A DNA stretch of 64,000 bases from an uncultured Spirochaetaceae bacterium (GTDB lineage: Bacteria > Spirochaetota > Spirochaetia > SZUA-6 > RPPD01). The DNA lies in contig CAZWYY010000013.1 of the NCBI GenBank assembly GCA_964638895.1, positions 2,522 to 66,521 on the forward strand, in the 5' to 3' direction. A model generated the notes under the pieces. It ran no database searches. It was not told the origin of the DNA and saw only the letters and a list, made by a program, of their open reading frames with translations. The translations under genes and the position numbers were made by a program. Below, piece after piece: positions 1-18,857 of this stretch; positions within the stretch are counted from its first letter, which is position 1; each line of letters opens with the position of its first letter.

Positions 1-42
1 AAGACGATATCCTGCGGGAGCCGATTTAAAGGAATTTGCCGT

Positions 43-1323
43 ATGCGGTCATGGAAAAGCATAAAAAGACTCATTCACACGGGAAAACATTTTTGCATAA
101 TTCCGTGGATTCACCTTCATATCACGGGTTTGGGGTATATGGGGTTATGCTGCGGAGAAAAAAAAGGGCCGTACGCCAGGGGTTACGGCAGTGTAAATAA
201 AAATACCTTCCGGGCCCTGTGGCAGGGGGAGGCAATCAGGGAACTGCGCTTGAAAATGTTGAATGATGAAGCGGACCCGCGCTGCCGGCTCTGTTACGAG
301 CAGGAAAACCTGGGGCAGACAAGTCTGCGTTTTTTACATAACCGTTCGTATGCTGAAAAATTTTTGGACTGGTTGTTGAATACGGATGAGTGGGGCTTCG
401 CCCCGGATGCCAAACCGGTGTATTGGGATATACGCTTTTCCAATTTATGTAATTTACGGTGCAGGTCATGCAGTTATACGGCAAGCTCCGCCTGGTTCGA
501 GGACGCCAAAGCCCTGGGACCGGTAAGAACACGGAAAACAGGCGCCGCTGTTATCCGCGTGCAGCATACGGCCAGGCTTTTAAAGGAGCTGGAACCATAT
601 TATTCCTCCCTGGAAAAGGTGATATTTGCCGGAGGTGAACCTCTGCTCATGGATGAAAATTACGATATCCTGGACAACCTGGAAAGGCTGCAAAAGTATG
701 AGACCGAGCTGCATTTCATTACGAATTTAACGACCCTGAATTACAAAGGCCGTGATATCTTAAAGATCTGGAATAAATTCAAAAACCTGTTTGTAACGGT
801 CAGCCTGGACGGCAGCGGGGACCGCTGCGAATACCTGCGTAAGGGTTTGAAGTGGAAAGCGGTATTAAAAAACCTGGAGTCCCTAAAGGAAAACTGCCCC
901 AATGCGCGGTTGAGTATTAATTGCACGGTCAGCGTTTTCAATATTCTGCATATAACGGATTTCCACCGGGAACTGGTGGAAAAAAATTTCATCTCCCCGG
1001 AAATGCTGCAACTATGCTTTCTTTATGAACCCTCATATTACAGCGTAAAAATCCTGCCGTCTGAGATGAAAAAACATGCCATTAAAAAAATAATCACCCA
1101 TATACACTGGTTAAAAACACGGGAGCCTTTTCATAATTTACAGGGATTTAATATGCACGCGGAGCGTTTTTTCCAGTGGGAAAACTGCATCAAATATATC
1201 AGGGAGGGCGACCGGACACATTTGATTCCCAAATTCATAGCCTTCACCGAAAAACTGGATGCGTTGCGGAATGAAAACTGCCTGGAAATTTTCCCGGAGC
1301 TTAAACCCCTGTACACCCTATGA
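43..1323 (+). CDS. Radical SAM enzyme, family A, with an N-terminal Cys-rich SPASM-like region (FCxxPW...GxxxxCC) before the CxxxCxxC core
   Basis: CNLRCRSC cluster with GGEPL downstream; N-terminal FCIIPWIHLHITGLGYMGLCC and CRLC; about 55 percent identical to ORF 3717-5003. Confidence 0.7.
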   Translation: MRSWKSIKRLIHTGKHFCIIPWIHLHITGLGYMGLCCGEKKGPYARGYGSVNKNTFRALWQGEAIRELRLKMLNDEADPRCRLCYEQENLGQTSLRFLHNRSYAEKFLDWLLNTDEWGFAPDAKPVYWDIRFSNLCNLRCRSCSYTASSAWFEDAKALGPVRTRKTGAAVIRVQHTARLLKELEPYYSSLEKVIFAGGEPLLMDENYDILDNLERLQKYETELHFITNLTTLNYKGRDILKIWNKFKNLFVTVSLDGSGDRCEYLRKGLKWKAVLKNLESLKENCPNARLSINCTVSVFNILHITDFHRELVEKNFISPEMLQLCFLYEPSYYSVKILPSEMKKHAIKKIITHIHWLKTREPFHNLQGFNMHAERFFQWENCIKYIREGDRTHLIPKFIAFTEKLDALRNENCLEIFPELKPLYTL

Positions 1324-2330
1324 TGTCTGATATGATTTTTCTGGATCACAGAGCTGAAGAACACAAAAAGAATTTTTTACTCGACTGGTACCTGGAAAAT
1401 CCTTATAACCTGAAAATGAAGGCCGGGAGCTCCTCCGGTTCCCCGACCGAACCCGATGTGGGCAGATATCTGGATGTAAGGGTTATCAGTGAATTTTGTG
1501 ATCGGGTTCTGTGTCATTACGCGGATAAACTCCGGCGTAAAGTGATTTTTGAGTTCAGCGGCGGCGAGCTGACCCCCGTACGTTATCTTCTGCAGATTCT
1601 GGGTTATCTGAAAAACCGTGCATGCAAGAGGTCTCTTGTGGTTAATCATGCCAGAAAGCAGCCATACTGGAAAAAACTCATTGATGAGGTGGATTTCGTT
1701 ACCCTTACCTACCCGTCGGGATATAATCAACCGGAAGCGTACATCGCGCTGATGGAGTACCTTCAGAATCATACGATACTGAGGGCGGCGATAGTAATGC
1801 AGAAAGAACGCTTTGCGGAGTGCCGGGACCTGGCGCAGACCATTATGCGTTCTTTTCAGAATGTTATGCTCAGCATTTTACCACCTGAAGAGGAAAAATA
1901 CCTGACGTACTCCGGGGAAAAGCGTGAACGGCTTTCGGCCCTGCTTGATCTCTGCCGCGCTCACAATGAAAAAAACGGGCTGACAAACAAGTGGTATCGT
2001 GGGGAAATGACCGCTTACACTACCGACGGCGGGACGGGTCATCTGACCCCTGAACAAATTTTGGCCCATCGGCAAAACAACTGGAAATCATGGATGTGCT
2101 GGTCCGGTCTGCATAAAATGGTCGTAGCGCCAGACGGAGACGTTTACCGGGCATGGTGCTTTAATGAACGGTTGGGCAATGTAGGCGGTGACGTCACTTT
2201 TCCGACGGTACCTATCAGCTGTCCGCTGAAACGCTGCGCCGATATAAGGGACATCGCCTTAAAAAGACAAAGCCTTGTGTTATTTAATCCGGGGAATATC
2301 CGGGAACTCGCCGAAATCGGAATTTTCTGA
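1320..2330 (+). CDS. Pseudo-radical-SAM protein (family B paralog lacking the CxxxCxxC triad)
   Basis: Colinear with 2333-3358 (KVIFEFSGGELT vs KILFEFTGGEVT; C-terminal WMCWSGL...RAWCFNERLGN vs WLCWTGL...RAWCMQEQLGN) but no Cys triad; ATGA overlap with upstream gene. Confidence 0.55.
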   Translation: MMSDMIFLDHRAEEHKKNFLLDWYLENPYNLKMKAGSSSGSPTEPDVGRYLDVRVISEFCDRVLCHYADKLRRKVIFEFSGGELTPVRYLLQILGYLKNRACKRSLVVNHARKQPYWKKLIDEVDFVTLTYPSGYNQPEAYIALMEYLQNHTILRAAIVMQKERFAECRDLAQTIMRSFQNVMLSILPPEEEKYLTYSGEKRERLSALLDLCRAHNEKNGLTNKWYRGEMTAYTTDGGTGHLTPEQILAHRQNNWKSWMCWSGLHKMVVAPDGDVYRAWCFNERLGNVGGDVTFPTVPISCPLKRCADIRDIALKRQSLVLFNPGNIRELAEIGIF

Positions 2331-2332
2331 AC

Positions 2333-3358
2333 ATGGAAATGCGAAAACCTTTATATAAAGATAAGACCGTTTTTATTGATCATGAACTGGACAAACATAA
2401 GGATGTGTTTGTGGTCAACTGGAACCTGGGCAACCGTTGTAATTATCGCTGCAGCTATTGCAATGAGACGCTGAACAGCGGGTCGGTCCCCTGGCTGGAC
2501 GCGGAGGCCGTGTTATGCTTCGCCGACAAGGTTATAGCGCATTACTCGGGGAAATTGCATAAAAAAATCCTGTTCGAGTTTACGGGCGGTGAGGTTACCC
2601 TCTATAAGGATTTATACAAGGTATTGAAATATTTAAAAGAAAACGGGTGTAAAACGGAAATCTTATCGAACGCCAGTCCCCGGCTGGCGTTCTGGGAGAA
2701 AATAAAAGACGTGCTGGATTACGCGATTCTCAGTTACCACGCGGAACACTGCGCCCCCGAGCATTTTTATGAGGTAGTGAAATCCGTAAACCGCAATATC
2801 AATGTGCACGTCAACATCATGATGAACAGGAATCGTTTTAACCTCTGCCGGGACCTCGGGGTATCGATTATGGACCTGGGCTCCGGTATTTCCTTAAGGT
2901 TCCAGCCCTTGTTGGAAAAATTGGCCGTAAACGCAAAACTGATCGGATACACCGAAGAGCAGCTGGCGTCCATAGGAATACTGAATGATCGGTGCAGCAC
3001 GGATTTTACCGGCCAAAACAGGTACCGCGGGCGCATGATCCATTACACCAGCGGGGGCGGTGAGTTCATCATGGATCCCCTGCAGTATGTAACGGAAAAG
3101 AAGAATCACTGGAGAGGCTGGTTATGCTGGACCGGATTGGAACAGATCGTTGTTTCACAATGGGGCGAGGTTTTTCGTGCCTGGTGTATGCAGGAACAGC
3201 TAGGGAATATCAGCGGACATATTGAGTTTCCGACAAAGCCGGTGGTCTGTACGAAAAAGACCTGCCATTGCAATATCGACATGCTGTGCAAAAAGCAGCT
3301 GCCGGTTTACCTGGATCCGGCAAACCTGAACCGGCTTAAAAAAATCGGCCTTGTGTAA
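2333..3358 (+). CDS. Radical SAM enzyme, family B, with a C-terminal Cys-containing twitch/SPASM-like region
   Basis: CNYRCSYC, FEFTGGEV, C-terminal CTKKTCHC; paralog of 21303-22325. Confidence 0.7.
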   Translation: MEMRKPLYKDKTVFIDHELDKHKDVFVVNWNLGNRCNYRCSYCNETLNSGSVPWLDAEAVLCFADKVIAHYSGKLHKKILFEFTGGEVTLYKDLYKVLKYLKENGCKTEILSNASPRLAFWEKIKDVLDYAILSYHAEHCAPEHFYEVVKSVNRNINVHVNIMMNRNRFNLCRDLGVSIMDLGSGISLRFQPLLEKLAVNAKLIGYTEEQLASIGILNDRCSTDFTGQNRYRGRMIHYTSGGGEFIMDPLQYVTEKKNHWRGWLCWTGLEQIVVSQWGEVFRAWCMQEQLGNISGHIEFPTKPVVCTKKTCHCNIDMLCKKQLPVYLDPANLNRLKKIGLV

Positions 3359-3422
3359 ATTCACCGTCAACCGCGAAGTGTTGATGTAACCTAATATCAA
3401 ACTTTTAAAGGAGAGAACAGCA

Positions 3423-3695
3423 ATGAGTAATAACGGAGACGTAAAGGCAAAGATAAAAGAGCTTTTGGCCGAAGTGACGGGTGACACCGCATTGTCGGGA
3501 AATCTAACGGACTCCTCCGATCTTATCAATGAGATCGGTCTGGACTCGATCCAGATGATCAATTTTATCCTTATGGTCGAGGATGAATTCGGGATCGAGA
3601 TTGATTTTGAGAACTTCGATTACACCAATTTCGAACGCTTTGACTCTTTCTGTCAATTTGTCTCGGAAACCGTGAAGTACCAGACGGTTTCATAA
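3423..3695 (+). CDS. Stand-alone acyl/peptidyl carrier protein (ACP-like)
   Basis: 90 aa, acidic, GLDSIQ phosphopantetheine-attachment-type motif; RBS AAAGGAGAGAA upstream. Confidence 0.65.
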   Translation: MSNNGDVKAKIKELLAEVTGDTALSGNLTDSSDLINEIGLDSIQMINFILMVEDEFGIEIDFENFDYTNFERFDSFCQFVSETVKYQTVS

Positions 3696-3716
3696 GCTTG
3701 CAATAAAGGGATTCTC

Positions 3717-5003
3717 TTGATGAGAACAAAACGCGACATTCAGCGGCTGTTAAAAAAGGGCAAACATTTTTGTCTGGCGCCGTGGGTGCACCTACATGTG
3801 ACGGGCTTGGGGATCATGGGGTTATGCGCCATGTCGGAGCAGGGTCCCTTTGATACGGGGTACGGCAGCCTGAATACCAATTCATTCCCCGAATTATGGC
3901 AGGGTGAGGCTATCAGGGAGTTCCGTTTGAAGATGCTGGAGGATCAGCCGGATTCCCGCTGCGTCAACTGTTATAAAAGTCGGCTGGGATATACCACGTT
4001 GCGGAATGAGATCAATTCCTATTATTGGGGACATCTTGACTGGGTGGCGCATACGGACGCCTCGGGATACGCCCCGCGGGCGAAACCCATATTCTGGGAT
4101 ATTCGTTTTTCCAACATATGCAATTTAAAGTGCCGTTCCTGTATTGATGTATCCAGCACCGGATGGTATGAGGATGCCAAGGCCATGGGATTTTTAAATG
4201 CACGCCATAACGGGGAACCCATCCAAGGCGTAAAAGACCCTGCCCGGTTGTTGCAGGATCTTGAGCCGTACCTGCCCCACCTGGAAGGCATACGTTTCGC
4301 GGGGGGGGAGCCTTTATTAATGGAAGAGAATTATTATCTCATGCAGAAACTTGACGCCCAGCGCAAATACAACATTCGCATTGAATACGAAACGAATATG
4401 ACGAAGCTGTATTACAAAAAAGACCTTTTATTATCTCTATGGAAAAAATTCAAAAATATCCTGGTATCCGTCAGCCTGGACGGATTAGAGGAGAGGTGCG
4501 AATACCTGCGTAAGGGGCTGAAATGGGAGAAGGTACTGGGGTATATAAATGACATTAAAGCACACTGCCCGGGGATCGGCCTGCGGATTAATTACACGGT
4601 GAGCGCCTATAATATCCTGCACGCCGCGGAGTTTCACCGCACCATGGTGGAAAAAAAGTATATCGGGCCTGAACAGATTCAACTCATCTTCCTTGTTGAA
4701 CCCAATTACCTGAGTATGAAAATACTCCCCCCGGCAATGAAAAAAGCCGCAACCAACAAGCTGATGAATCACATACGCTGGCTGCACAGGGAGTATCCAT
4801 TCCGTTCCACCTGCGGATTCAGGAACTGCGGCGGGCTTTTCATTCAATGGCTTACCTGTATTAAAAAACTGAATGAAGAGGATTGGTCGCACCTGATACC
4901 GCAATTTATCGATTACACCAACAAACTGGATACGCTGCGCAGGGAAAACTGCCTCTCAGTTTTCCCTGAAGTAAACGGGCTTTTCCGGTTGCGGGTCGGA
5001 TGA
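3717..5003 (+). CDS. Radical SAM enzyme, family A (paralog of 43-1323)
   Basis: CNLKCRSC, GGEPL, N-terminal FCLAPWVHLHVTGLGIMGLC; likely ATG at 3720. Confidence 0.7.
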   Translation: MMRTKRDIQRLLKKGKHFCLAPWVHLHVTGLGIMGLCAMSEQGPFDTGYGSLNTNSFPELWQGEAIREFRLKMLEDQPDSRCVNCYKSRLGYTTLRNEINSYYWGHLDWVAHTDASGYAPRAKPIFWDIRFSNICNLKCRSCIDVSSTGWYEDAKAMGFLNARHNGEPIQGVKDPARLLQDLEPYLPHLEGIRFAGGEPLLMEENYYLMQKLDAQRKYNIRIEYETNMTKLYYKKDLLLSLWKKFKNILVSVSLDGLEERCEYLRKGLKWEKVLGYINDIKAHCPGIGLRINYTVSAYNILHAAEFHRTMVEKKYIGPEQIQLIFLVEPNYLSMKILPPAMKKAATNKLMNHIRWLHREYPFRSTCGFRNCGGLFIQWLTCIKKLNEEDWSHLIPQFIDYTNKLDTLRRENCLSVFPEVNGLFRLRVG

Positions 5004-5006
5004 ATC

Positions 5007-6734
5007 ATGGAGCTTGTTAAAAGGAAATTAAAGCAAGGCATCACTTTTTTTATGCCCGTCACGGCCGCCCCCCTGATAAATGAGATCTGGGAAAAGGAGG
5101 TGTACAACCGGGCATACTCGCTGAAGGAAAACGATATTGTGCTTGATGTGGGCGCGAATATCGGTGTTTTTTCACTCTACGCCGCTTCCAGGGGGGCGAA
5201 GGTCTTCAGTTTTGAACCCAACCCCGAAGTCTTTGCTGTTTTACAAGAGAACATCAGGATCAATAACCTGGAAAACAGGGTCACACCTTTGAATATGGCC
5301 CTGGGCGATCATAAAGGTAAAGCGACCTTATTCATGGCGCTTTCGGAAAAGATATACGCGCCGGGTTCGGCTTCCATTATGAGGGATTTTATTGATGATC
5401 TGGATAAAAGGTACGGCAAGAATGATTATACCGCCTTCACGGTTTCCTGCCTGCGGTTGGATCAGGCATTGGATTTACTGCGCCTTAAGATGGTTGATTT
5501 TATGAAGGTGGACTGCGAGGGAGCGGAGTACGACATCATGCAAAGCGTTCCGCAGCACAGGCTGGGAGAAATCCGCCGTATCGCCATGGAGATCCATATC
5601 GCCTGTTACTCCCAAAAAGAGTTGTGCCGGATTTTGCGGCAAAAGGGATACGTAGTCAACGAGTTCGAAAAAGCGGATGAATCCTCCCTGACCGGTTTTT
5701 TGTACTGTACCCATTCCGCAATGGGGATAACCGCACCCGGCAAACCGGTCGCGGTTTTGTCGGTCAGGCAGGGGCAAGACATAGATAAAGATTATGTTTT
5801 TTGTAATCAAAGCGTTATTTTTGACGGCAGCCGGAGTTTTATCACAAACGGCGGAGAGCGGAAACCCGTTTTTAAATGGAGCATAGATGAAATTAATGCC
5901 CGCAGCCAAGCTGAAAAATGGAGTTACAGGTTTACGGAACCGGGTTATCACCGGGTGACGCTCTGCCTGCGCCATGACCGTAAATCGGATTCGGCCGAAA
6001 AAGAACTCATGGTTTTACAGGCTGATTATTTTCGGGGCGGCGTTGATCATTACCTTTCACCGCTTAGGGAAGATACGGGAAGGAGTGATGCGAAATGTGT
6101 GACCTTTCATGACGGAGTCAAATTCTCAATCCGGAGTGATCACCTGCCGGCAACCAGGTTCGGACAGCTCTTGATCGAACTTGAAATTAAAAGTTTCCCC
6201 GGTGAACCGCTCTCCGGATTACAGGAGCAGCTGCTCTTATTTGAAATGAACGGCCGGAAGATCGTCCTCGGTGAGCCGAACGAAAAAATACTTATGGATA
6301 CAATTCTTTACGGCATCGACGCCGTTTTTACCCTCACTCCTTATATTTACCGGGGTCAAAGGGAGATCAGCATCAAATGGGGAATACCGGACACGATTTC
6401 CAACATACAAGAGGGAAACAAACCGGACACGGCTCCGCCGGCCGGGGAGACCGGTTTGTATCTTTTCCGGGGCGAGAAGCTTTTTACCATCGGCGTGGAT
6501 ATGTTTCCCCCGGACTGGACCCCGCGGGAAATTGTTATCGATATCAAGCCTTCACAGTACCGGGGCAAAAAAACCGCTTTGTCCGGCTTTCTGTGTTACG
6601 GAAAGCGGGTTACGGCATTATCCGGCTGGAAAGATGGGGCGCGCATAAAAAAGGGCGAGTGGGAGGATGATTTCTCATTCTCGATCAACCTGCCCACGGA
6701 GAATTGTCTCAGGCTGACATGGTGGCCCGAATGA
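5007..6734 (+). CDS. FkbM-family SAM-dependent methyltransferase fused to a ~330-aa C-terminal domain of unknown function
   Basis: LDVGANIGVFSLYAA, FEPNPEVF; C-terminal domain ends TWWPE as in paralog 23308-25038. Confidence 0.65.
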   Translation: MELVKRKLKQGITFFMPVTAAPLINEIWEKEVYNRAYSLKENDIVLDVGANIGVFSLYAASRGAKVFSFEPNPEVFAVLQENIRINNLENRVTPLNMALGDHKGKATLFMALSEKIYAPGSASIMRDFIDDLDKRYGKNDYTAFTVSCLRLDQALDLLRLKMVDFMKVDCEGAEYDIMQSVPQHRLGEIRRIAMEIHIACYSQKELCRILRQKGYVVNEFEKADESSLTGFLYCTHSAMGITAPGKPVAVLSVRQGQDIDKDYVFCNQSVIFDGSRSFITNGGERKPVFKWSIDEINARSQAEKWSYRFTEPGYHRVTLCLRHDRKSDSAEKELMVLQADYFRGGVDHYLSPLREDTGRSDAKCVTFHDGVKFSIRSDHLPATRFGQLLIELEIKSFPGEPLSGLQEQLLLFEMNGRKIVLGEPNEKILMDTILYGIDAVFTLTPYIYRGQREISIKWGIPDTISNIQEGNKPDTAPPAGETGLYLFRGEKLFTIGVDMFPPDWTPREIVIDIKPSQYRGKKTALSGFLCYGKRVTALSGWKDGARIKKGEWEDDFSFSINLPTENCLRLTWWPE

Positions 6735-6752
6735 ATGGGAGGGAAATGAGCA

Positions 6753-8087
6753 TTGGCCGGTAAATTAGTATTAGGCACGTTCAACGCGGAAAAATATTGG
6801 CGGGAAGACGGATTGGCCTGTCTGCCCGAGTTGTATGACGCGGGCGCGGCAAAGATCGTGCGCGCCATGGACGAGCTGTTGTTTCCCCTTTGTGAAAGGG
6901 GTGATGTGTTACTTACCCGTTTTAAGATGGACCCTGCCTTTAAAGACTACCTTAACAGGCTGGGTTTTCAATTTGTGTCAAACAATTTTAACCTGGAGGA
7001 AATCACTGCGGCGGCCGCGGGGCCGGGCGGGGGCTGTATTGAGGAACTGCTGAACCGCAAACGCCGTGACCCGCGACTCTTGGAGTTTCTGGGACCGGTT
7101 AGCTCCTTACACCCGTACGCCGTGCTCCCCGGTACGACGGAGACCGTAAAAAACTTCGGCTGGGAGGAGTGCCACCCGCCTTACGAGGCCGTGAAAAAGG
7201 TAAATTCCAAGGAATATTCCAATGAACTGAACGAGCGGATCGGTGTAAAAAAGTACGGAAAAATAATTCACAGTACGGACGAATATCATGAGACGGCCGC
7301 CCGGATAGGCAACGGAAGGGGGTTCATCATCAAGGACCTGTACGGCGTATCCGGTAAGGGGAACCTGCTTGTCGCCGGGCCCTCACTGCAGAAAAGGATC
7401 GGAAAGCACCTTGCCGCGCAGGAAGAGAAGGGTCTGGCCGTCCGCTTTCTGATGGAACCGTATTTTGACAAGGTGTATGACTTTTCCTGCCAGCTTTACA
7501 TCGGCAGGACGGGGGATTCCCGCATAGTTTCGATACAGGAGATCAAGAATTATCTCTTTACCTACATCGGTTCCCTGAGCGCCGGAGATGATTTTATCTG
7601 TTTTCTTAAGGACCGGGGATACTTCGAACTAATGCAAAAGGTTGCGGAAGAACTTTACGGCGACGGATACTGCGGCGATGTCTGTATAGACTCCATGATC
7701 CTCAAGAACGATGAGCTGGTTCCGGTGGTTGAGATCAACGCGCGTAAATCCATGGGACTGATAAATTATTACATCGACCGCTTCCTGGCTGGATATTCCG
7801 CGCGCGGATATTTTGTTTTTTTTACCGCTGTTTGTGAAGGTCGGACCGGTTTTCACGACATCCTGGAAAAGCTGGAACATGAAGGCATCCTCTTCACCGC
7901 CGCGCGCGGTCGCGGCGTACTGCCGTTGTCGGCCAATGCCCTGTTCGTGAACCAGGACGAGGAGAAGAGTTACAAAGGAAGATTTTATTTTTCCGCGGCC
8001 GCGGGCACCCAGCATGAAAGGCAGGGGCTGGTGGACCGGACCGTCAATGCCTTTACCTCGATGGGATTCCGTGTTTATTACCGCTAA
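6753..8087 (+). CDS. ATP-grasp domain ligase (TTG start)
   Basis: GFIIKDLYGVSGKGNLLV glycine-rich loop, VVEINARKSMG C-terminal motif; RBS GGAGGG upstream of TTG. Confidence 0.5.
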   Translation: MAGKLVLGTFNAEKYWREDGLACLPELYDAGAAKIVRAMDELLFPLCERGDVLLTRFKMDPAFKDYLNRLGFQFVSNNFNLEEITAAAAGPGGGCIEELLNRKRRDPRLLEFLGPVSSLHPYAVLPGTTETVKNFGWEECHPPYEAVKKVNSKEYSNELNERIGVKKYGKIIHSTDEYHETAARIGNGRGFIIKDLYGVSGKGNLLVAGPSLQKRIGKHLAAQEEKGLAVRFLMEPYFDKVYDFSCQLYIGRTGDSRIVSIQEIKNYLFTYIGSLSAGDDFICFLKDRGYFELMQKVAEELYGDGYCGDVCIDSMILKNDELVPVVEINARKSMGLINYYIDRFLAGYSARGYFVFFTAVCEGRTGFHDILEKLEHEGILFTAARGRGVLPLSANALFVNQDEEKSYKGRFYFSAAAGTQHERQGLVDRTVNAFTSMGFRVYYR

Positions 8088-8098
8088 AGGAGACATAA

Positions 8099-9243
8099 TG
8101 AAAGAAGACAAGGTTACTATTTTGGCCTCGGGCGTGGCCTTGGGAGTATATATCCCGGCCCTGCTTGTCAATTATCAGCTGCGGCGGCGCGGTGTGGCGG
8201 CTGAGGTTGTTGTTCTGGAAAATCTTTTGCTGCCTGAAAAAAAGGCGAAGATACCCGCCAACAAGCAGGCCTTTCACAGGAGTTTCCGTGTCGCCCTAGC
8301 CGGACAAAAAATGGCTGTCGACCTTTGGCCTCATTATGATAAGAAGGCGCTGGCCGGGTTATTCGACGCTTGGCAGGGGGAGGGGAGGAGGAACTTTATT
8401 GTTTTTTCCGGGTTCTGGATGTCCGTGCTCCGTGAATATATCAACACGGTTCCCGGAAACGGAATGAACGTGGAGATTGTGCACATGGACGCGGATATAT
8501 CCGCCTCGTGGCGGCTTTTCAGGCGGGAGACTACGGGGTTTAATAATGTCTGGCTGTTTGACGGGCGGAATAAGAAGGTGGACTATGAACTCAGGATCGC
8601 GCAGCATCCCCCCGTGCCGTACCGAAGCAGGCCGGACCGTTACGTAATTCACGGTGGCGGTTGGGGAATGGGGAACTACCGGGAAAAAATCGCGGAATTG
8701 GAAGAAGGCGGACTGAAGCTTGATATCGTTGCCTATGAAGCGGAGGAAACCGAGAACCTTAAAGCGGGCCACAGGAGTTTCATGATTGATCCGTGCTGGT
8801 CACCCTGGATAAAGAATAATAACGATGAACACGAGTTTCCGCCCTTCGGTCAAATAACCGGCGGCCGGGCCCCTGTATTTAAAAACAAACAGGAGTATCA
8901 CGATCTTTTTGACGTGATCCGCCTGAGCAGGGCGATTATCAGCAAGCCCGGCGGCGCTACCCTGGCGGATTCCCTGGCTTCAGCCACGCCCCTGGTTATA
9001 CTGGAGTCTTTCGGGAATTATGAGCAACAAAACGCTGAACTATGGGAGCACCTTGGTTTCGGTATCCGGTATGATGATTGGAAAACGGCAGGTTTCTCAG
9101 GGGGTATTCTGGAAAAATTTCATTATAACCTTTTATCTGCCGCGGGTTTGGCCGTGGACTATGTCAGTGATTATATAGACAGGAATTGCGGCCGCGCGCC
9201 CGGGGTCTTGGGACCGGGAAGGTCGCTTCACGGCGTAAATTAA
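8099..9243 (+). CDS. GT-B glycosyltransferase, MurG/MGDG-synthase (GT28)-like
   Basis: VIHGGGWGMGNY and KPGGATLADSLASATPLV motifs; RBS AAGGAGACA; start moved from ORF-track 8014 to ATG 8099. Confidence 0.5.
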
Positions 9244-9269
9244 CCGCCGTCTTTGTAAGGAGGATTATT

Positions 9270-10442
9270 TTGCAGCCAAAAACAGCGGTCAGGTTTGACC
9301 GGAAATCGTTCGAACGTATTAAGCGGACCATACGCAATATGTCGGTGGGCAGGAGCTCCATCAGGCAGGATCCCGGGTTTGCCATGAGGCTTCCCGATGA
9401 AATCGGCATCCAGTTGACCAACAAATGCAATCTGCGCTGCCGCCATTGTTTTCAATGGAATGAGGAGGGTTTTTTCAACAGCTTTGACAAGGGAACACAG
9501 AAAGACGAGCTTGATTTCCCGCTGATAGAAAAAATTCTGGCTCAAACGGCGGGCGTCAAATCCAACCTGTATTTATGGGGCGGTGAACCGCTTTGTTACA
9601 CCCACTGGGATGAGCTTTCGTATGCCCTGGAAAAGGATCCGCGTTGGACGGTCTTCTGTACGAACGGCATCGATGTTGAGAAGAAACTCGAGTCCCTGCT
9701 GCGGGTGTCCTCATCACTCGCCATGCTTGTCAGCGTTGAGGGGTTCGAGGAAGAGCACGACGCGGTCAGGGGCCGGGGTACGTATAAGAAGGTGATGGAA
9801 AGTATCGATCTGTTATTGAAGCTGAAAAGACAAAACAAGTTCAAGGGAGAGGTGTCCGTCAACTGTGTGATAAACGAGAGTATGATCGGGAAGCTGTATC
9901 AGTTCGCCCGGATGTTCGAGGAAAATGGCATCAACACCCTGTATTTCTGTTTTCCGTGGTACATCCCCCGCTCGTCCGCGCTGCATATGGATGCGTTCTT
10001 TAAAAAGAACTTCGGCTGGCTGCGCACATTGGACAATGACCATGCCGCGAGTTGGCATTCCTATACATACCATCTTTCCCCCGACGTGACGCGCGCGCTG
10101 ACGGCCGATTTGGGCCGGGTAAGCGAAAAGGTTTGGAAAATAAGAATGCGTTACCAGCCCGCGCTTAAGCCCGGAGAGATTGAAGGTTTTATCAGGGGTG
10201 AGGAAACCACAGCCCAGAAAAGAAGCAAATGTATCGGTCTTACCAACCGCATGAATGTCATGCCGTCGGGAAAGGTCACCGTCTGTAAGCTATTCCCGGA
10301 ATTTGAAATAGGCGACCTTACGGGTTCGGGCGTTGAAGAGGTATGGAACAATGAGACCTTCAGGCGGGTGCGTGAAATCTTAAATCGGGGACTGACCCCG
10401 GTCTGTTCAAAATGCATTCTCCTTTATCTGCACGGGGTGTAG
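9270..10442 (+). CDS. Radical SAM/SPASM-domain enzyme (AtsB/PqqE-like architecture)
   Basis: LTNKCNLRCRHC, GGEPL, C-terminal CIGL...VCKLFPEFEIGDL...CSKC; TTG 9270 with AAGGAGG at 9257-9263. Confidence 0.7.
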   Translation: MQPKTAVRFDRKSFERIKRTIRNMSVGRSSIRQDPGFAMRLPDEIGIQLTNKCNLRCRHCFQWNEEGFFNSFDKGTQKDELDFPLIEKILAQTAGVKSNLYLWGGEPLCYTHWDELSYALEKDPRWTVFCTNGIDVEKKLESLLRVSSSLAMLVSVEGFEEEHDAVRGRGTYKKVMESIDLLLKLKRQNKFKGEVSVNCVINESMIGKLYQFARMFEENGINTLYFCFPWYIPRSSALHMDAFFKKNFGWLRTLDNDHAASWHSYTYHLSPDVTRALTADLGRVSEKVWKIRMRYQPALKPGEIEGFIRGEETTAQKRSKCIGLTNRMNVMPSGKVTVCKLFPEFEIGDLTGSGVEEVWNNETFRRVREILNRGLTPVCSKCILLYLHGV

Positions 10443-10451
10443 CGGATTACA

Positions 10452-11528
10452 ATGAAGACCTACAGCTTTGTTATTCCCACGTATAATAAAAAAGCACTCC
10501 TAAAGAACACGCTTGAAGCGCTGAACTACCAGCCGGGCTACGGCTACTATGAAGCGGTTGTGGTGGACGACGGCTCGGACGACGGCACCCGTGATTATAT
10601 CAAGGAAACGGCCAGGAATTACGAGCTGAAGTATCTCTACCTGGAAAGGGATATGAATTCGTGCCGGGCCAGAACAAGGAACCACGGATGGAAGAACGCC
10701 GGGGGCGAGGTGATTGTCTTCATCGATTCGGATATAATCATCAAGCCGGATTACCTGGCGGAGCTTGAGCGCTGCTTTGGGCTTGATGATGATATCGCGG
10801 TTATCGGCAACAGGCTGATGCTGCCGGAACCGTCGACATATAAAGAGGTGACCGGCCTGGAGATCTACCGGAAATACGGCTTCGGCGGGCATAAGGATCT
10901 GCGGGAGTTCCGGTACCTTTTATACGGAGATACCTCCTACAATATCAACGCCCATGCCTACCCCTGGACGCAGTTTTACAGTTGTAATGCGGCGCTGCCG
11001 AAGAAATGCCTGGAACAAACCGGCGGCTTTGATGAAAATTTCAAGGGCTGGGGCGTGGAGGACATTGAGCTTGGTTATGAGCTGTATAAAAGGAACATTC
11101 CTATTGTCATAAACCATAAACTGGAAGTGTTTCATCAGTATCACGGTCCGAGGAACGACCTGTCCATTAAGCCTGAGCTTGTTCCCGACTATGAAAGGAA
11201 TATCGCTTACTTTCTAAAGAAACATCCGCAGTCGCTACACATGCCCGACAAGTATAAGTATGATTTTTTAAAAGGCGAGTTAAAGGACGATTCGTTTTTT
11301 AGCGAAAACGGCAAGCGGTATATCGGCGTGGATTTCAGAGACCGGTCTCAATTGGGTAATCTGAAGAACCTGCTGCTCAAGTCGATATCCAGGGATAAAA
11401 CCGTCATAGTGGTTAATGACTACCTTGAAAATACGGACCTTGATATCTGGATTCAGCTTCCCAAAAAGCAGGGGCAGATCACGGCCCGCTATTTCCCAAT
11501 GTCAAAAAAGGCGGAACGGCACGGATGA
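10452..11528 (+). CDS. Family 2 glycosyltransferase with a conserved C-terminal extension
   Basis: FVIPTYNK, VVDDGSDDGT, FIDSDI; paralog of 14112-15290 including the tail VNDYLENTDLDIWI...YFPMSKK. Confidence 0.7.
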   Translation: MKTYSFVIPTYNKKALLKNTLEALNYQPGYGYYEAVVVDDGSDDGTRDYIKETARNYELKYLYLERDMNSCRARTRNHGWKNAGGEVIVFIDSDIIIKPDYLAELERCFGLDDDIAVIGNRLMLPEPSTYKEVTGLEIYRKYGFGGHKDLREFRYLLYGDTSYNINAHAYPWTQFYSCNAALPKKCLEQTGGFDENFKGWGVEDIELGYELYKRNIPIVINHKLEVFHQYHGPRNDLSIKPELVPDYERNIAYFLKKHPQSLHMPDKYKYDFLKGELKDDSFFSENGKRYIGVDFRDRSQLGNLKNLLLKSISRDKTVIVVNDYLENTDLDIWIQLPKKQGQITARYFPMSKKAERHG

Positions 11529-12328
11529 GAGTCTTTATCACGGTTATAAAACTCTACCTCAAGGTGATGATCCAATACCGCACAACCTTCATGCTTTCGC
11601 TCATCGGGGAGCCTGTGCTGTATCTGATCAATATCATTTATTTTTCCGCCATCTATGCCTACAATGGCAAGGACACGGTTTTGGGTTATAGCCTGACCCA
11701 GATGATATGGTATTTTGCCGGTATATCACTTGTCTGGCAGTGTATCTGGAACTCCACCGACAATAATATCTCTCAAAAGATTCTATCCGGCGACCTGGCG
11801 GTAGACCTGTTGAAGCCGTTTTCCACGTTAAAACTGGAACTGGCCTATGCCCTGTCGGCGAGAATCCTGGCCGTTATGCTGGAGTTTGTACCGGTTCTGG
11901 CCATATACATGCTGCTTTTTTTCCCCGGGTTTATCACCATTTTTGTGGTAATCAAATTTTTGATCGTCATGCCCCTGTCTTTTCTTATGTTTTTTCTGTT
12001 GAACTACCTGATCGGGCTGACGGCATTTTTTATTAAAAACAATACCTCCCTGCAGACCGTCAAGTACGTGCTTATTACCCTGACGGCCGGCGGGTTCATT
12101 CCCCTGGATTTTTTTCCGCAATGGGTGCAGCGCGTAACCGGAGTGCTGCCGTTTCAATACCTTTTTTACTGGCCAATTCAGATCCTTTTAAACCGGGAAA
12201 CGACAAAGGGGTGGGAAAATTTTACGCGAATCGTTTCCTGGCAGTTGTTATGGATAGCGGGCTTTTATCTTTTATCCAGGATTTTCTGGAAACGGGCAAT
12301 AAGAAAATATTGCGCCGTGGGGGGATAG
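11525..12328 (+). CDS. ABC-2 type transporter permease
   Basis: About six hydrophobic segments; C-terminal KRAIRKYCAVGG similar to the next permease; 4-nt overlap with upstream gene. Confidence 0.55.
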   Translation: MRVFITVIKLYLKVMIQYRTTFMLSLIGEPVLYLINIIYFSAIYAYNGKDTVLGYSLTQMIWYFAGISLVWQCIWNSTDNNISQKILSGDLAVDLLKPFSTLKLELAYALSARILAVMLEFVPVLAIYMLLFFPGFITIFVVIKFLIVMPLSFLMFFLLNYLIGLTAFFIKNNTSLQTVKYVLITLTAGGFIPLDFFPQWVQRVTGVLPFQYLFYWPIQILLNRETTKGWENFTRIVSWQLLWIAGFYLLSRIFWKRAIRKYCAVGG

Positions 12329-12377
12329 CGTAATATTAATCCTCAACCTGTTCAGATTTTTCTTACTCAACAGCAGA

Positions 12378-13124
12378 TTGAAACTGTTACGGGGAATGCA
12401 GTACAAGACCGACTTCTTCATGGGCATATTTCTGTCCATGAGCTTTTCCAGTCTGGGTCCCCTTTTCCAGTACCTTATCTTCAGCCAGACAAGGGGATAC
12501 CCGCGCTGGAACCTGAAGCAGATCATCCTATTCCAAGGTGTGGTACTCTTATGGCTGGGTATAAAAGACCTGCTTTTCGGAGAAATACGCGGTTACGTGG
12601 AGAGTATGGTAAAAGGAGGGAATTTCGACAGGCTGCTGCTTAAGCCGTATCCCCCTCTGGGCGTTATCCTGACCAGCGGCTTCTATTACCATGCCTTTGG
12701 CACGATTATCGCGGGAGCGGTAATCATTGCCGTTTCCCTTCAGCAGTTGGGACTGGTCTTAAGCTGGTGGCAACCGCTGCTTTTCGTGGGTTTCTTTGCC
12801 TGCGGCATTTTGCTGCATATGACCATAACCATATTGTACTGTATCATGATTATCAGGCTTACCCACATGGGACGGCTGGGAGAAATCATCGACAAACTGC
12901 TCCAGTTCTCCCAATATCCCCTGGATATCCTTTCCCCGGTTCTCCGCATGGCCCTGATGGTGTTTCTGCCGATCGCCATCTGGATCTATTTCCCCACGGA
13001 GATCCTGCTTGACAGGCTTGAGGTGAACGCTTTCATGGGAGTGGCGGTGGCTCTTGCACTCTTCTTTGCCAGTCTTTTTTTATGGAAGAGAAGCCTTAAG
13101 AGATATACCAGTGCGGGAGGGTAG
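12378..13124 (+). CDS. ABC-2 type transporter permease (second subunit)
   Basis: Polytopic hydrophobic protein; C-terminal KRSLKRYTSAGG. Confidence 0.55.
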   Translation: MKLLRGMQYKTDFFMGIFLSMSFSSLGPLFQYLIFSQTRGYPRWNLKQIILFQGVVLLWLGIKDLLFGEIRGYVESMVKGGNFDRLLLKPYPPLGVILTSGFYYHAFGTIIAGAVIIAVSLQQLGLVLSWWQPLLFVGFFACGILLHMTITILYCIMIIRLTHMGRLGEIIDKLLQFSQYPLDILSPVLRMALMVFLPIAIWIYFPTEILLDRLEVNAFMGVAVALALFFASLFLWKRSLKRYTSAGG

Positions 13125-13127
13125 GTT

Positions 13128-14111
13128 ATGAGTGATAACATTATCAAAATAAAAAACTTAAAGAAGGTCTTCAAGGTGCGGGTAAAAAGTAAAGAAGGCA
13201 TGTGGGCTTCGGTAAGGCTGCTGTTTAAAGGAGAGTACAAGCTGGTGACCGCGGTTGACGGATTGAGCATGAATGTGAAAAGGGGCGAGATAAAGGGGCT
13301 GATCGGTCCGAACGGTGCCGGAAAGTCCACCACCATCAAAATAATTTCTGGTATTCTTTTTCCCAGTGAGGGTACCGTGGATGTGCTGGGGTTTACGCCG
13401 TGGCTGCAGAGGAGGGAGTACGTCAGGCACATCGGCGTACTCTTCGGTCAAAAAACGCAGTTGTTTTGGGATTTACCCCCTATGGACACCTTTTTACTGC
13501 ACAGGGAAATGTATAAAATACCCGAAAAGCGCTTTCGGAAAAACGTGGCGTATTTTAAACAGGTGCTGCAGCTGGAAGAGGTGGTAAAAAGGCCCGTACG
13601 GAATCTCTCCCTGGGAGAGAGGATGAAGTGCGAGCTGGTGTGCGCCATGCTGCATGAGCCGGAGCTTGTCTACCTGGACGAGCCGACCATCGGGCTTGAC
13701 CTGTTTGCCAAAGAGTCCATCAGGAATTACATCAAGCGGATTAAGAAAGAGAAAAACACCACCTTTATCCTGACCACCCATGATCTGAATGAAATTGAAA
13801 ATATCTGTGAAAACGTCAGTATCATCAATAAGGGCAAAATCGTATATAACGGGGCGCTGGAGAATCTCAGCTCCTTTTTTACAAAACGGAAGATTATCGA
13901 GGTGAAGTTTACGCGGAAAACGGACACGACGGCGCTGGGTAATTTCAAGATTGTTTCCTCCAACCCCTTTTCCGTAAAGATCGAGGTGGACCTGACAAAA
14001 AACAAGATTCAGGACGTCGTGTACGGTATTTTTAACGTACTGCCGGTACAGGACATCAATATACAGGATGTCGGTATCGAGGATATCATAAAACAGATTT
14101 ATACACGGTAA
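13128..14111 (+). CDS. ABC transporter ATP-binding protein with a ~90-aa C-terminal extension
   Basis: GPNGAGKSTT Walker A, LSLGERMKCEL signature, LVYLDEPTIGLD Walker B. Confidence 0.8.
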   Translation: MSDNIIKIKNLKKVFKVRVKSKEGMWASVRLLFKGEYKLVTAVDGLSMNVKRGEIKGLIGPNGAGKSTTIKIISGILFPSEGTVDVLGFTPWLQRREYVRHIGVLFGQKTQLFWDLPPMDTFLLHREMYKIPEKRFRKNVAYFKQVLQLEEVVKRPVRNLSLGERMKCELVCAMLHEPELVYLDEPTIGLDLFAKESIRNYIKRIKKEKNTTFILTTHDLNEIENICENVSIINKGKIVYNGALENLSSFFTKRKIIEVKFTRKTDTTALGNFKIVSSNPFSVKIEVDLTKNKIQDVVYGIFNVLPVQDINIQDVGIEDIIKQIYTR

Positions 14112-15290
14112 ATGAAGTACAGTATTGTAATTCCCACCCATAACAATAAAATCCTCTTGAAAAATACGCTGGAAGCCTTAAACCGCCAAAATGGATTCGG
14201 GAAAGACGATTACGAGGTGATCGTGGTCGACGATGGTTCACAGGACGGTACGTGGCGCTTTATCCGTGGGGTAGGGAGAAACTACGAATTAAAATACCAC
14301 TACCTTGAAAGGTGCAAGGACTCTTGTCGCGCCAGAACCAGGAATTACGGGTGGCGGAACGCCGGCGGTGATATTGTGGCGTTTATCGATTCCGATATCC
14401 TGGTGGCGGATGACTATCTCTTACAGCTTGAACGTTGCTTTTCAATAAGCGAGGATATCTTGTTAATAGGCAACCGCCTCATGCTCAACAAGCCCGTCTC
14501 CCCGGGGAGTATTGCCGGCGGAAGGGTGTTCAGGGATTTTGGTTTTGACGGAAATGATTTCAGTATCCTGGAATTCCGTTATTTTCTGTACGAGGTAGCG
14601 TCTTATAACGCCAATGCCATCATGTGTCCCTGGATGCAGATTTACAGCTGCAATATGGCCGTTTCGCGGAACTGGCTGCACAAGGTCGGGGGTTTTGATG
14701 AGCGCTTCAAGTTTTGGGGCATGGAGGACCTTGAAATCGGTTTTGCCCTTTACGACGCCGGGATCCAGATCGTTATCAATCCCAAGTTGGAGGTTCTGCA
14801 TCAATACCACGGCAGGCGCAATGATCTGGTGGTGGAGCAGAGAAAAATCGCCGGGTATGAAAAAAATATCGATTATTTCCTGGACAAACATCCCCACGCG
14901 CTCCGCATGGGTAGAAAATTCGCCTACAAATTATTCAAGGGGGAAATATCCTCTGATAAAATGCTTATCGACAACAAATGGGAAAAGACCGTGCTGGATT
15001 TCAGGGACAGTACCAGGCTGAATGAGATCAAGGACGTGATTTTAAAATTAAGCGCCAAAGAAAAAATAAAGCCTATTGTCAATGATTATGTTGAGGATAC
15101 AGACCTGGATATCTGGATCAACCTGCTGGGCGTCACACCCAGCGTAGTGAAGTATTTTCCCATGTCGAAAAGGCTCCCTGCGGGCAAGATGCTGAGTTTT
15201 TTGAAAGAGGAGAAAGCACGACAGCTCGGCACCCCGCCGACCGGATCCTGCCGCGAATTTAATACCGATGGAATAAGAAATGCAAATTAG
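14112..15290 (+). CDS. Family 2 glycosyltransferase (paralog of 10452-11528)
   Basis: IVIPTHNN, VVDDGSQDGT, FIDSDI; conserved tail VNDYVEDTDLDIWI...YFPMSKR. Confidence 0.7.
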   Translation: MKYSIVIPTHNNKILLKNTLEALNRQNGFGKDDYEVIVVDDGSQDGTWRFIRGVGRNYELKYHYLERCKDSCRARTRNYGWRNAGGDIVAFIDSDILVADDYLLQLERCFSISEDILLIGNRLMLNKPVSPGSIAGGRVFRDFGFDGNDFSILEFRYFLYEVASYNANAIMCPWMQIYSCNMAVSRNWLHKVGGFDERFKFWGMEDLEIGFALYDAGIQIVINPKLEVLHQYHGRRNDLVVEQRKIAGYEKNIDYFLDKHPHALRMGRKFAYKLFKGEISSDKMLIDNKWEKTVLDFRDSTRLNEIKDVILKLSAKEKIKPIVNDYVEDTDLDIWINLLGVTPSVVKYFPMSKRLPAGKMLSFLKEEKARQLGTPPTGSCREFNTDGIRNAN

Positions 15291-16260
15291 TATCCAACTT
15301 GAGAGGGTTGCCTGCAATATGAAATGTAGGGCATGTTATAATCATGACGGAAACCTCAGGCAAACTTCTCACGGCGCCGAAACCCGAAAATTGTTTTATA
15401 AAATAGAATTTATCAGACAGTCCATGGAGATATTTAAGGATTTATCCGTGGAAATTTTCGGCGGGGAGCCTTTTGTCTCTAAGGAAGAGCTTTATTTTTT
15501 GCTGGAGTATCTGTTTAAAAAAAACATACCGGTTTTTATCGTTACCAATGGAATTTTGCTTAATGAAAAGACCGTAAAACGTATTGCCAAATACGGGAAT
15601 CTGCTGCTTTTGGTGTCTTTTCACAGCTACAGGGAAAGAGGGTACAATTTGTACACCAATTCAAAAGGTAATTACCCCATCCTTGCTAAAAATTTGAAGT
15701 TATTGGTGAAGTATAATATCGATTTTAAACTCACCACCGCATTAATGCGTTTGAATGAAAATTATATCGTGGATCAAATCAGCTTTTTTAAAGAGAGTTT
15801 CAACCGGCCGGTCTACTTGTCATTTATTAATCCCACCTTCAACAATACCGACTGGCTTAAACTGCAGATAATGGCGCCCGCGCAGATACAGGAAACACTG
15901 TTGAGTATCCGCAAAAACCATCCGGATGTGTTGAGTGATATTGATATGGAGTATGTCTTCGATTATTACGACGGGAGATGCAAGGGACAACCATGTGATT
16001 TTATGAGTAAAAACCTGATTTTAAATAATAACGGGGTTTTAAACCTGTGTTTTATCGGTGATACACTGCCCTTTGATTTTTTTGAACTTCCGGACTTAAG
16101 CTCGTATATGGAATACATATATCCAAAAAACCGGGAATTACAAACATCAAATTTTTGTAAAAACAACAGCTGCCAGATATTGCAGGTAACCTGCAGGGAA
16201 AAGTTTGTACCCCGATATAGTACCGCAGGTGAAAAGGAAACAAATTTATGCAAGCATTGA
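15280..16260 (+). CDS. Radical SAM enzyme with C-terminal Cys residues
   Basis: CNMKCRACY, FGGEPF; overlaps upstream gene by 11 nt. Confidence 0.6.
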   Translation: MQISIQLERVACNMKCRACYNHDGNLRQTSHGAETRKLFYKIEFIRQSMEIFKDLSVEIFGGEPFVSKEELYFLLEYLFKKNIPVFIVTNGILLNEKTVKRIAKYGNLLLLVSFHSYRERGYNLYTNSKGNYPILAKNLKLLVKYNIDFKLTTALMRLNENYIVDQISFFKESFNRPVYLSFINPTFNNTDWLKLQIMAPAQIQETLLSIRKNHPDVLSDIDMEYVFDYYDGRCKGQPCDFMSKNLILNNNGVLNLCFIGDTLPFDFFELPDLSSYMEYIYPKNRELQTSNFCKNNSCQILQVTCREKFVPRYSTAGEKETNLCKH

Positions 16261-17681: not shown

Positions 17682-18831
17682 AAGCAACAAGGGAACCATT
17701 AAAGGCCCCAAGAAGATGCAGGGCAGGTACTGCCTGCAGCCGTTTACCAATATTGATATTCACTCCAACCATGGGGTCCGCTGCTGCAGTGAGTCCTGGA
17801 TGCCGTCGTGGATCGGGGATTTTTCCACGCATAACCTGAAGCAAATTTGGAACGCGCCCGCCATCCAGGCCATACGGCAGAGTATTTTGGACGGAAGTTA
17901 TTCATTTTGTGATTGGCATCAATGTCCTTTTTATTGCAATGACTCCTATTACCTGTACTCGCGGGAGGAGTTGGAGAATCCGCAGGGCCTTGGAGGGGTG
18001 GACGCATACAGACTTGCGAAATACGCGCCATGGATCAGGTATATTCTGCAGGAAAAAACCGAACTCGACATCCTGCCCGCCAATTACAACCTGGCCTATG
18101 ATGAAACCTGTAACCTGGCCTGCCCCAGCTGCCGCAAAAAAAGGGTGGCTTTCAGGAAGGGGGCGGAGTATACCCTGCGCTTGGGGATTCATAACAAGCT
18201 GTTAAAGGAGGTTAAGGAGAACGGGTTTGAACATATCGGACGCTTTAACCTGACCGGCTCCGGTGAACCCTTTGTGTCTCGTATTTTCACTGATTTTCTC
18301 TATAACTTTGACGGCGGGAAGTATCCGCGCCTGGATATTAATATTCAATCCAACGGGGTTCTCTTTACTCCCGCGGCCTGGGCCAGGATGAAAAAAATCC
18401 ACGTTAATATCAATGAGGTTATTATTTCATTGGACGCCTGCTGTGCCGAGACCTATAAAAAAATCCGGGTAAACGGCTCCTATAAAAAACTCCTGGTCAA
18501 CATTGAATTCCTGGCCGCGCTGCGCGCACAGGGCAAGATCCGCCGTTTTATGCTGGCTTTTGTGGTACAGCAAAAGAATTACCGTGAAATGCCCCGGGCC
18601 GTAAAAATGGCGAAATACTACGGCGCGGATCTTTTTATCTTTAATCTGTTAAACGACTGGAAATCGTGGAGTCCCCGGGATTATGAGGCAAACGCTGTGT
18701 GGAAGAGTTTTCATCCGGAATTCGAGGAGTTTCTGGGGGTTTTAAGGGATCCCGTGTTCAATGACCCCATTGTTGACCTAGGTAACATGATCGAGTATCG
18801 CAATAGGGCCTATTCTTATGCCGGGGCTTAA
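17662..18831 (+). CDS. Radical SAM enzyme with an N-terminal Cys-rich region (related to family A)
   Basis: CLQPF...HGVRCCSESW...CDWHQCPFYC, then CNLACPSC and LTGSGEPF. Confidence 0.6.
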   Translation: MHTRGFESNKGTIKGPKKMQGRYCLQPFTNIDIHSNHGVRCCSESWMPSWIGDFSTHNLKQIWNAPAIQAIRQSILDGSYSFCDWHQCPFYCNDSYYLYSREELENPQGLGGVDAYRLAKYAPWIRYILQEKTELDILPANYNLAYDETCNLACPSCRKKRVAFRKGAEYTLRLGIHNKLLKEVKENGFEHIGRFNLTGSGEPFVSRIFTDFLYNFDGGKYPRLDINIQSNGVLFTPAAWARMKKIHVNINEVIISLDACCAETYKKIRVNGSYKKLLVNIEFLAALRAQGKIRRFMLAFVVQQKNYREMPRAVKMAKYYGADLFIFNLLNDWKSWSPRDYEANAVWKSFHPEFEEFLGVLRDPVFNDPIVDLGNMIEYRNRAYSYAGA

Positions 18832-18857
18832 AAAAACAGCACCAGGGGGGTGATACA

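Follow-up and report, generated by a model that had tools for sequence, protein, structure and literature searches.

Among the pathways in which an ATP-grasp ligase depends on a carrier protein, only those for butirosin and closthioamide have been characterized, and hundreds of related clusters are without known products (PMC7183216). In the butirosin pathway, BtrJ charges BtrI with Glu and subsequently attaches another Glu; in the closthioamide pathway, CtaD, which works iteratively, charges CtaE with Asp (PMC7183216). About 400 uncharacterized clusters encode a CtaD homologue together with a carrier protein, with a KAS III group and a glycosyltransferase group making up most of them (PMC7183216). 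In pactamycin biosynthesis, PtmJ attaches GlcNAc to a β-ketoacyl intermediate on the carrier PtmI, and further remodelling of the sugar is believed to precede release (PMC9092360). Here we describe an ATP-grasp ligase gene in a 64,000-nt stretch of DNA from an uncultured Spirochaetaceae bacterium (contig CAZWYY010000013.1; the whole stretch is called the window below). The gene belongs to a cassette that also encodes a phosphopantetheine carrier protein, a predicted GT-B-fold glycosyltransferase and a radical S-adenosylmethionine (SAM)/SPASM enzyme; a literature search found no paper describing this four-gene cassette. By analogy with the systems above, we put at roughly 0.55 the probability that the ligase depends on, or acts with, the carrier protein in the manner of a BtrJ/CtaD-like thiotemplated ligase. 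The features of the window are collected in Table 1.

The preliminary description of this DNA, made from its letters alone, had read an open reading frame with a TTG start and a ribosome-binding site at this position, and this reading held (Table 1). The translation is free of internal stop codons, and an upstream start is excluded by an in-frame TGA at 6747-6749. The first internal methionine is residue 39. As the homologues share the starting alignment column, and as G8, E13, L24 and P25, which are invariant in 52 homologues, all precede Met39, the TTG start is supported. More than 311 homologues came out of the homologue search, the lowest E-value being 1e-141, and a profile search in a database of 1.84 billion representatives retrieved 356 clusters (50% identity) at E ≤ 1e-30 and 2211 at E ≤ 1e-3. 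Thus, the gene is not a chance reading frame. Its best relatives in genomes were 47-49% identical and came from metagenome-assembled genomes of Spirochaetota and Bacillota, and the names of ten distant family representatives were all hypothetical or metagenomic.

No Pfam model reached its cut-off with the 444-residue protein. The best matches were PreAtp-grasp (residues 46-73; 14.5 bits, cut-off 27.5), ATP-grasp_3 (residues 191-331; 13.6 bits, cut-off 23.2) and PGM1_C (residues 369-390; 12.4 bits, cut-off 22.5), which lie in the same order as in PGM1. A Pfam scan of 52 aligned family members gave weak matches to CPSase_L_D2 (19 of the 52), ATP-grasp_3, GARS_A and others, none of them above threshold. 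The family is a remote branch without a curated model of its own. Since Pfam and NCBIfam could classify neither this protein nor the product of the gene directly downstream, structure prediction was needed. The AlphaFold2 model, which used an alignment of 52 homologues, had a mean predicted local distance difference test (pLDDT) score of 94.5 and a predicted template modelling score of 0.93. It showed the three-domain α/β ATP-grasp fold, in which ATP would lie between the central and C-terminal domains, and the full-length architecture of PGM1 and BesA, from the pre-ATP-grasp N-domain to the C-terminal domain of PGM1 type. In Foldseek searches against the PDB, a Streptomyces ATP-grasp peptide ligase (8YND, E 5e-20), the L-propargylglycine--L-glutamate ligase BesA (8YI6) and the pheganomycin peptide ligase PGM1 (3WVQ/3WVR) ranked at the top, followed by PurK, biotin carboxylases and GAR synthetase. 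The sequence identity between the family and PGM1, BesA or 8YND is only 16-21%, and the family profile matched 8YND at E 4.5e-8 in HMMER.

The two motifs on which the preliminary description had based its claim of an ATP-grasp fold are present, and they fall where such an enzyme needs them. Motif 1 forms a β-hairpin in the model (E191-199/E202-207). In HMMER alignments, K194 and GVSGKG were matched with the Lys/GGGGKG loop of the biotin-carboxylase domain of the 3-methylcrotonyl-CoA carboxylase α subunit, and E235 with the nucleotide-contacting Glu of the same domain, while EINAR of motif 2 was matched with EINAR of 8YND (HEINARWSGG). K194, G198, V199, G201, G203 and E235 are invariant in the 52 homologues, as are D313, E327, N329 and R331 at the Mg2+/catalytic positions. 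Motifs lying off the ATP-binding loop would have spoken against the claim; they align with the loop and with E-x-N-x-R, and the fold model agrees. The other outcome named as adverse, a lack of profile matches, applies just to the extent that this remote branch has no curated model. These results indicate that the gene encodes a genuine, very divergent ATP-grasp ligase, which according to its model is of the PGM1/BesA structural type and a remote member of that ligase clade.

The searches also bear on another kind of ATP-grasp chemistry. The sole NCBIfam match was PRK06524, 'biotin carboxylase' (E 4.8e-8), and this match, the weak CPSase_L_D2 matches in the family and the rank of PurK and the biotin carboxylases next after the PGM1 group would fit a carboxylase of the biotin carboxylase/PurK-like type, which would form carboxyphosphate and carboxylate a carrier-bound substrate. 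The PRK06524 match scored 31.5 bits against a cut-off of 684, and the cluster has no biotin carrier, carboxyltransferase or purine-pathway partners. We consider a carboxylase very improbable.

The gene context was scanned in one genome per GTDB species (185,579 species), which gave 480 relatives of the ligase. The locus counts given here cover 80 of these relatives, and six individual homologue neighbourhoods were analysed besides. In the fetched loci, the genes are ordered carrier, ATP-grasp, GT-B and radical SAM/SPASM. The carrier gene is found in 78 of the 80 loci, on the same strand in all of them and directly adjoining the ATP-grasp gene in 60; as a rule it comes immediately 5′ of the ATP-grasp gene, whose start it frequently overlaps. 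A GT-B gene occurs in 79 loci (adjoining the ATP-grasp gene in 71) and the radical SAM/SPASM gene in 75. All four genes occur together in 73 loci from at least eight phyla, and among the incomplete cassettes are contigs that end within or beside the cassette. The linkage of the four genes is near-universal. The loci span Bacillota, Spirochaetota, Cyanobacteria, Margulisbacteria, Gammaproteobacteria, Chlorobiaceae and Anaerolineales, with hosts such as Paenibacillus, Cohnella, Clostridium, Lachnospiraceae, Nostoc and other cyanobacteria, Methylococcaceae and Thiothrix. The neighbours named in the preliminary description, a methyltransferase upstream (FkbM), a glycosyltransferase downstream (GT-B) and, in the same cluster, a carrier protein and many radical SAM enzymes (nine genes), were all found.

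Around this core, the 80 loci vary. ABC-2 permease and ATPase families occur in 44-46 of them, and Gfo/Idh/MocA proteins, nucleotide-sugar enzymes and FkbM and class-I methyltransferases are other frequent neighbours. An AMP-binding ligase is encoded in 20 loci. KAS III is present in 10, mostly in Clostridia, where the minimal version consists of KAS III, carrier, ATP-grasp, GT-B and radical SAM/SPASM genes. Proteins weakly similar to BtrH_N, the domain of the butirosin carrier-protein transacylase, with sub-threshold matches of E 1e-5 to 6e-4, occur in 38 loci, mostly of Paenibacillus. Neither a BtrH-like nor a KAS III gene is present in the window.

The carrier protein of the window has the GLDS attachment serine. 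In 60 carrier orthologues, the GLDS serine motif is invariant and the C-terminus is not conserved; therefore, the carrier is of the phosphopantetheine type and not of the LysW type, in which ligation takes place at the C-terminal carboxylate of the carrier. We infer that it partners the ATP-grasp enzyme. Loci of the Paenibacillus polymyxa group and relatives (Table 1) contain a second, paralogous ATP-grasp gene, which is also flanked by carrier proteins of its own: the sub-cluster comprises carrier, radical SAM/SPASM, ATP-grasp, second carrier and BtrH_N-like genes and is located a few kb upstream of the pair of ATP-grasp and GT-B genes.

An ATP-grasp enzyme encoded with a dedicated stand-alone phosphopantetheine carrier is the arrangement of BtrJ and CtaD, and the BtrH_N-like or KAS III genes that often accompany the related loci fit the survey of CtaD clusters. 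The present loci resemble the KAS III and glycosyltransferase groups of that survey, and the family may be contained, uncharacterized, in the published CtaD network. What sets the present loci apart from the BtrJ and CtaD systems is their pair of invariant partners, a GT-B and a radical SAM/SPASM enzyme. The amino-acid ligation to a carrier-bound substrate that the preliminary description had proposed as one of two functions fits the presence of the carrier gene in nearly all loci.

In the mechanism that we propose, the ligase would activate the carboxylate of an amino acid or another acid with ATP to an acyl-phosphate, and it would then hand the acyl group over to the carrier's phosphopantetheine thiol or to an amine on a substrate that the carrier already bears. 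The GT-B enzyme would glycosylate the intermediate while it is still tethered to the carrier, and the radical SAM/SPASM enzyme would then modify the glycosylated intermediate. In the window, further radical SAM enzymes, methyltransferases, GT2 proteins and the ABC-2 exporter would tailor and export the product. The order of the steps and the nature of substrate and product are, like the carrier dependence, what we infer, and our confidence in the later steps (glycosylation on the carrier, radical modification and export) is lower than that in the carrier dependence.

The GT-B protein had no Pfam match and no NCBIfam model above threshold; a weak NCBIfam match covered the C-terminal nucleotide-sugar region of UgtP. 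It has more than 634 homologues, with 43-59% identity among the 120 matches listed. It is better conserved than the ATP-grasp protein, the closest homologues being 57-59% identical as against about 50%. Its AlphaFold2 model had a pLDDT of 90.7, and Foldseek matched it with GT1 natural-product enzymes (elaiophylin glycosyltransferase, CalG3, LanGT2 and OleD), MurG and MGD1. Two motifs are invariant in the family, HGGGWG.GT and SKPGG.TL.DS, in which we see a likeness to the G-loop and nucleotide-sugar motif known from the GT28/GT1 families. By this model, the label 'glycosyltransferase' is correct at the level of the fold. In one natural fusion, P0231 (L089:720-2180), a PP-binding domain stands at the N-terminus of the GT-B protein, and in the Thiothrix locus L059 (3577-4979) a second carrier gene lies directly ahead of the GT-B gene. 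These two arrangements hint that the GT-B enzyme also works with a carrier protein.

The pactamycin proteins PtmI, PtmJ and PtmK follow a similar logic, with a carrier, a loading enzyme, a GT-B enzyme acting on a tethered intermediate and radical SAM enzymes suspected in sugar remodelling, and the clostridial cassettes with KAS III show a further likeness to this system. In contrast to the present cassette with its ATP-grasp enzyme, the pactamycin pathway relies on an adenylate-forming ligase for loading, and the likeness is drawn on this logic and not on homology of the glycosyltransferases. The radical SAM enzymes of the pactamycin pathway are of the HpnJ type with a B12-binding domain, whereas the one of the cassette is of the SPASM type.

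Several points weigh against a carrier-dependent ligase. The pyridoxal phosphate (PLP) decarboxylase (BtrK/CtaF type) and the papain-like transacylase (BtrH/CtaG) that define the butirosin and closthioamide pathways are lacking both in the window and in the conserved core; a decarboxylase domain was found neither in the cluster reading frames nor among the frequent neighbour families of the 80 loci. The likeness to BtrJ and CtaD comes from gene context and published descriptions and not from sequence comparison. In the window, two genes (3717..6734) separate the carrier gene from the ATP-grasp gene, and the fusion of carrier and GT-B domains is known from a single 2.4-kb metagenomic contig. 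The nearest solved structures, PGM1 and BesA, act on free and not on carrier-bound substrates. Finally, the linkage would also be expected if the ATP-grasp enzyme supplied or modified a free building block of the same pathway.

The last two points lead to the alternative that the enzyme is a free-substrate amide ligase like BesA or PGM1, which would couple two soluble molecules while the carrier serves another step of the pathway. Addition of a γ-glutamyl group or another amino acid to an intermediate is a possible variant, as is amidation of the uronic-acid carboxylate of a sugar; glucuronamide in the capsule of Campylobacter jejuni arises through an ATP-dependent amidoligase. PGM1, BesA and 8YND, which matched the structure best, work on free acids and amines. 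Many loci encode nucleotide-sugar dehydrogenases, Gfo/Idh/MocA proteins and sugar aminotransferases, from which amino-uronic acids could arise, and the window itself has a DegT-type aminotransferase. However, PGM1, BesA and 8YND, whose substrates are free acids and amines or ribosomal peptides, are not encoded beside a carrier protein, whereas the present family nearly always is, with the carrier gene placed immediately ahead of the ATP-grasp gene, and the paralogues, too, have their own carriers. Moreover, the sugar-nucleotide genes do not belong to the conserved core, and the minimal clostridial loci lack them. The context thus argues for a different or additional, carrier-bound substrate compared with PGM1 and BesA. 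We regard the free-substrate ligase as rather unlikely, if still to be reckoned with, and prefer the carrier-dependent one.

The second function proposed in the preliminary description was that of a macrocyclase for ribosomally made peptides with post-translational modifications (RiPPs), namely a graspetide enzyme or a PGM1-style ligase that acts on a ribosomal peptide together with a SPASM radical SAM enzyme. A pairing of ATP-grasp and SPASM radical SAM enzymes is known in RiPP pathways (PMC8939145), and PGM1, among the top structural matches, takes a ribosomal peptide as the nucleophile. The microviridin-type graspetide macrocyclases MdnC, CdnC and PsnB are members of this superfamily too, with the ATP-binding core in common. 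No close structural or profile similarity to MdnB/MdnC, CdnC or PsnB was seen, and of the profile checks that the preliminary description had suggested, ATP-grasp models gave sub-threshold matches and RiPP-type grasp models gave none. The core genes of the window are tightly packed, and no conserved precursor-peptide gene was seen there. Across the 80 loci, no conserved small non-carrier reading frame of at least 70 amino acids was found, those shorter than 70 amino acids not having been systematically clustered; the other conserved small reading frames are further carrier proteins or antisense artefacts. With neither a matching RiPP ATP-grasp model nor, among the reading frames of at least 70 amino acids in the 80 loci, a conserved precursor-peptide gene, the RiPP reading was rejected, its probability being close to negligible.

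Table 1. Positions of the ligase gene, its motifs and the genes of its cluster in the window, and loci with a second ATP-grasp paralogue
Feature	Position	Strand	Remarks
ATP-grasp ligase gene	6753..8087	+	444 amino acids; TTG start; PGM1/BesA-like three-domain architecture (model); uncharacterized family without curated hidden Markov model
Ribosome-binding site GGGAGGG	6737..6743	+	Read from sequence; nine bases 5′ of the TTG start
Motif 1, GFIIKDLYGVSGKGNLLV	7320..7373	+	Residues 190-207; ATP-binding Lys (K194) and glycine-rich loop GVSGKG
Motif 2, VVEINARKSMG	7725..7757	+	Residues 325-335; E327-x-N329-x-R331, Mg2+-binding/catalytic
Phosphopantetheine carrier protein	3423..3695	+	Stand-alone; 90 amino acids; GLDS attachment serine; Pfam PP-binding, E 6.9e-11
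GT-B-fold glycosyltransferase (predicted)	8098..9243	+	381 amino acids; directly downstream of the ATP-grasp gene; structure model; family without Pfam model
Radical SAM/SPASM enzyme	9339..10442	+	Fourth cassette member; Pfam Radical_SAM and SPASM; CNLRCRHC motif
Co-directional gene cluster	43..27722	+	About 28 kb; nine radical SAM genes
Radical SAM protein	43..1323	+	N-terminal twitch domain; NF033640, 366 bits (cut-off 170)
Radical SAM relative	1320..2330	+	336 amino acids; without CxxxCxxC; no Pfam Radical_SAM match
Radical SAM protein	2333..3358	+	
Second N-twitch radical SAM protein	3717..5003	+	Between carrier and ATP-grasp genes; NF033640, 334.9 bits (cut-off 170)
FkbM-family methyltransferase domain protein	5007..6734	+	575 amino acids; directly upstream of the ATP-grasp gene; Pfam and NCBIfam FkbM matches
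Accessory block	10452..15290	+	GT2, two ABC-2 permeases, ABC ATPase, second GT2 (Pfam)
Rest of cluster after second GT2			Four radical SAM proteins, DegT-type sugar aminotransferase, Old Yellow Enzyme (OYE)-like reductase, second FkbM protein
Also after second GT2			B12-binding radical SAM protein, class-I methyltransferase-like protein
Second ATP-grasp paralogue loci	L055, L060, L064, L069, L071, L079, L081, L083		Paenibacillus polymyxa group and relatives

The remaining genes of the cluster (Table 1) include several for proteins without family assignment. All nine radical SAM proteins carry CxxxCxxC. The cluster contains no nonribosomal peptide synthetase or polyketide synthase. The reading frame of the cassette enzyme was listed from TTG at 9186, and the ATG at 9339 is its likely start; no NCBIfam model matched this protein above its cut-off. 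The radical SAM relative at 1320..2330 is a paralogue of the products of 2333..3358 and 21252..22325, all three of which match one homologue in locus L008, and judging from its sequence it may be a degenerate, non-catalytic relative. In the products of 43..1323 and 3717..5003, a twitch/SPASM-like cluster domain is N-terminal, before the radical SAM core, and the radical SAM protein encoded at 17662..18831 likewise has a twitch/SPASM-like domain ahead of the core. No family was matched by the C-terminal half (about 345 amino acids) of the FkbM protein upstream of the ligase gene; its paralogue of about 575 amino acids, encoded at 23308..25038, also has the FkbM methyltransferase domain at the N-terminus. 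The listed reading frames of the radical SAM protein at 21252..22325 and the OYE-like reductase at 22111..23292 overlap by about 214 bases, and the Oxidored_FMN match of the latter spans only profile positions 140-342; the reductase may start later or be shortened. The accessory block would form a module for glycan extension and export.

The G+C content of positions 1..28000 is 0.49, as against 0.547 for 28001..64000. Since the G+C of the cluster is lower than that of the rest of the window, horizontal acquisition of the cluster is compatible with the data. A hybrid sensor gene abuts the cluster on the opposite strand (29331..32987); its product combines a periplasmic sugar-binding domain, a histidine kinase, a receiver and a GGDEF domain. 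Regulators with Peripla_BP domains also stand beside the homologous cluster of Spirochaetota (L001), a hint that control may respond to sugars. The product of 34915..39546, a large Lhr-type helicase of 1543 residues with DEAD, WH_Lhr and DEAD_assoc domains, has no relation to the cluster.

The window thus belongs to a large, sharply defined subgroup whose ATP-grasp and GT-B families are without curated models, and whose core is kept in organisms as far apart as Paenibacillus, Clostridium, Nostoc, Spirochaetota and methanotrophs. By analogy with BtrJ and CtaD, it most likely represents a form of thiotemplated ATP-grasp chemistry whose enzymatic setting is new and widely conserved, and the product is most likely a sugar-decorated small molecule built on a carrier and not a cyclized ribosomal peptide. 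More tentatively, and as a possibility that we hold with clearly less confidence, the cassette could be a widespread, so far undescribed thiotemplated route to glycosylated small molecules derived from amino acids, in which the ATP-grasp enzyme loads the carrier, the sugar is added on the carrier and radical remodelling follows. Relatives of the ligase occur in about 480 species of at least eight phyla. If this reading is true, an ATP-grasp enzyme would take the place of an adenylating enzyme in loading the carrier, and the sugar or the aglycone would be remodelled by radical chemistry, as suspected for the cyclopentitol of pactamycin. The product would then represent a new class of natural products or cofactors that current genome-mining tools do not detect. 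With the four proteins as a compact system, one could ask what it is that the ligase loads and whether sugar transfer and radical steps take place on the carrier, and the cassette can serve genome mining as a marker of clusters that standard tools would probably overlook or wrongly class with those of RiPPs.

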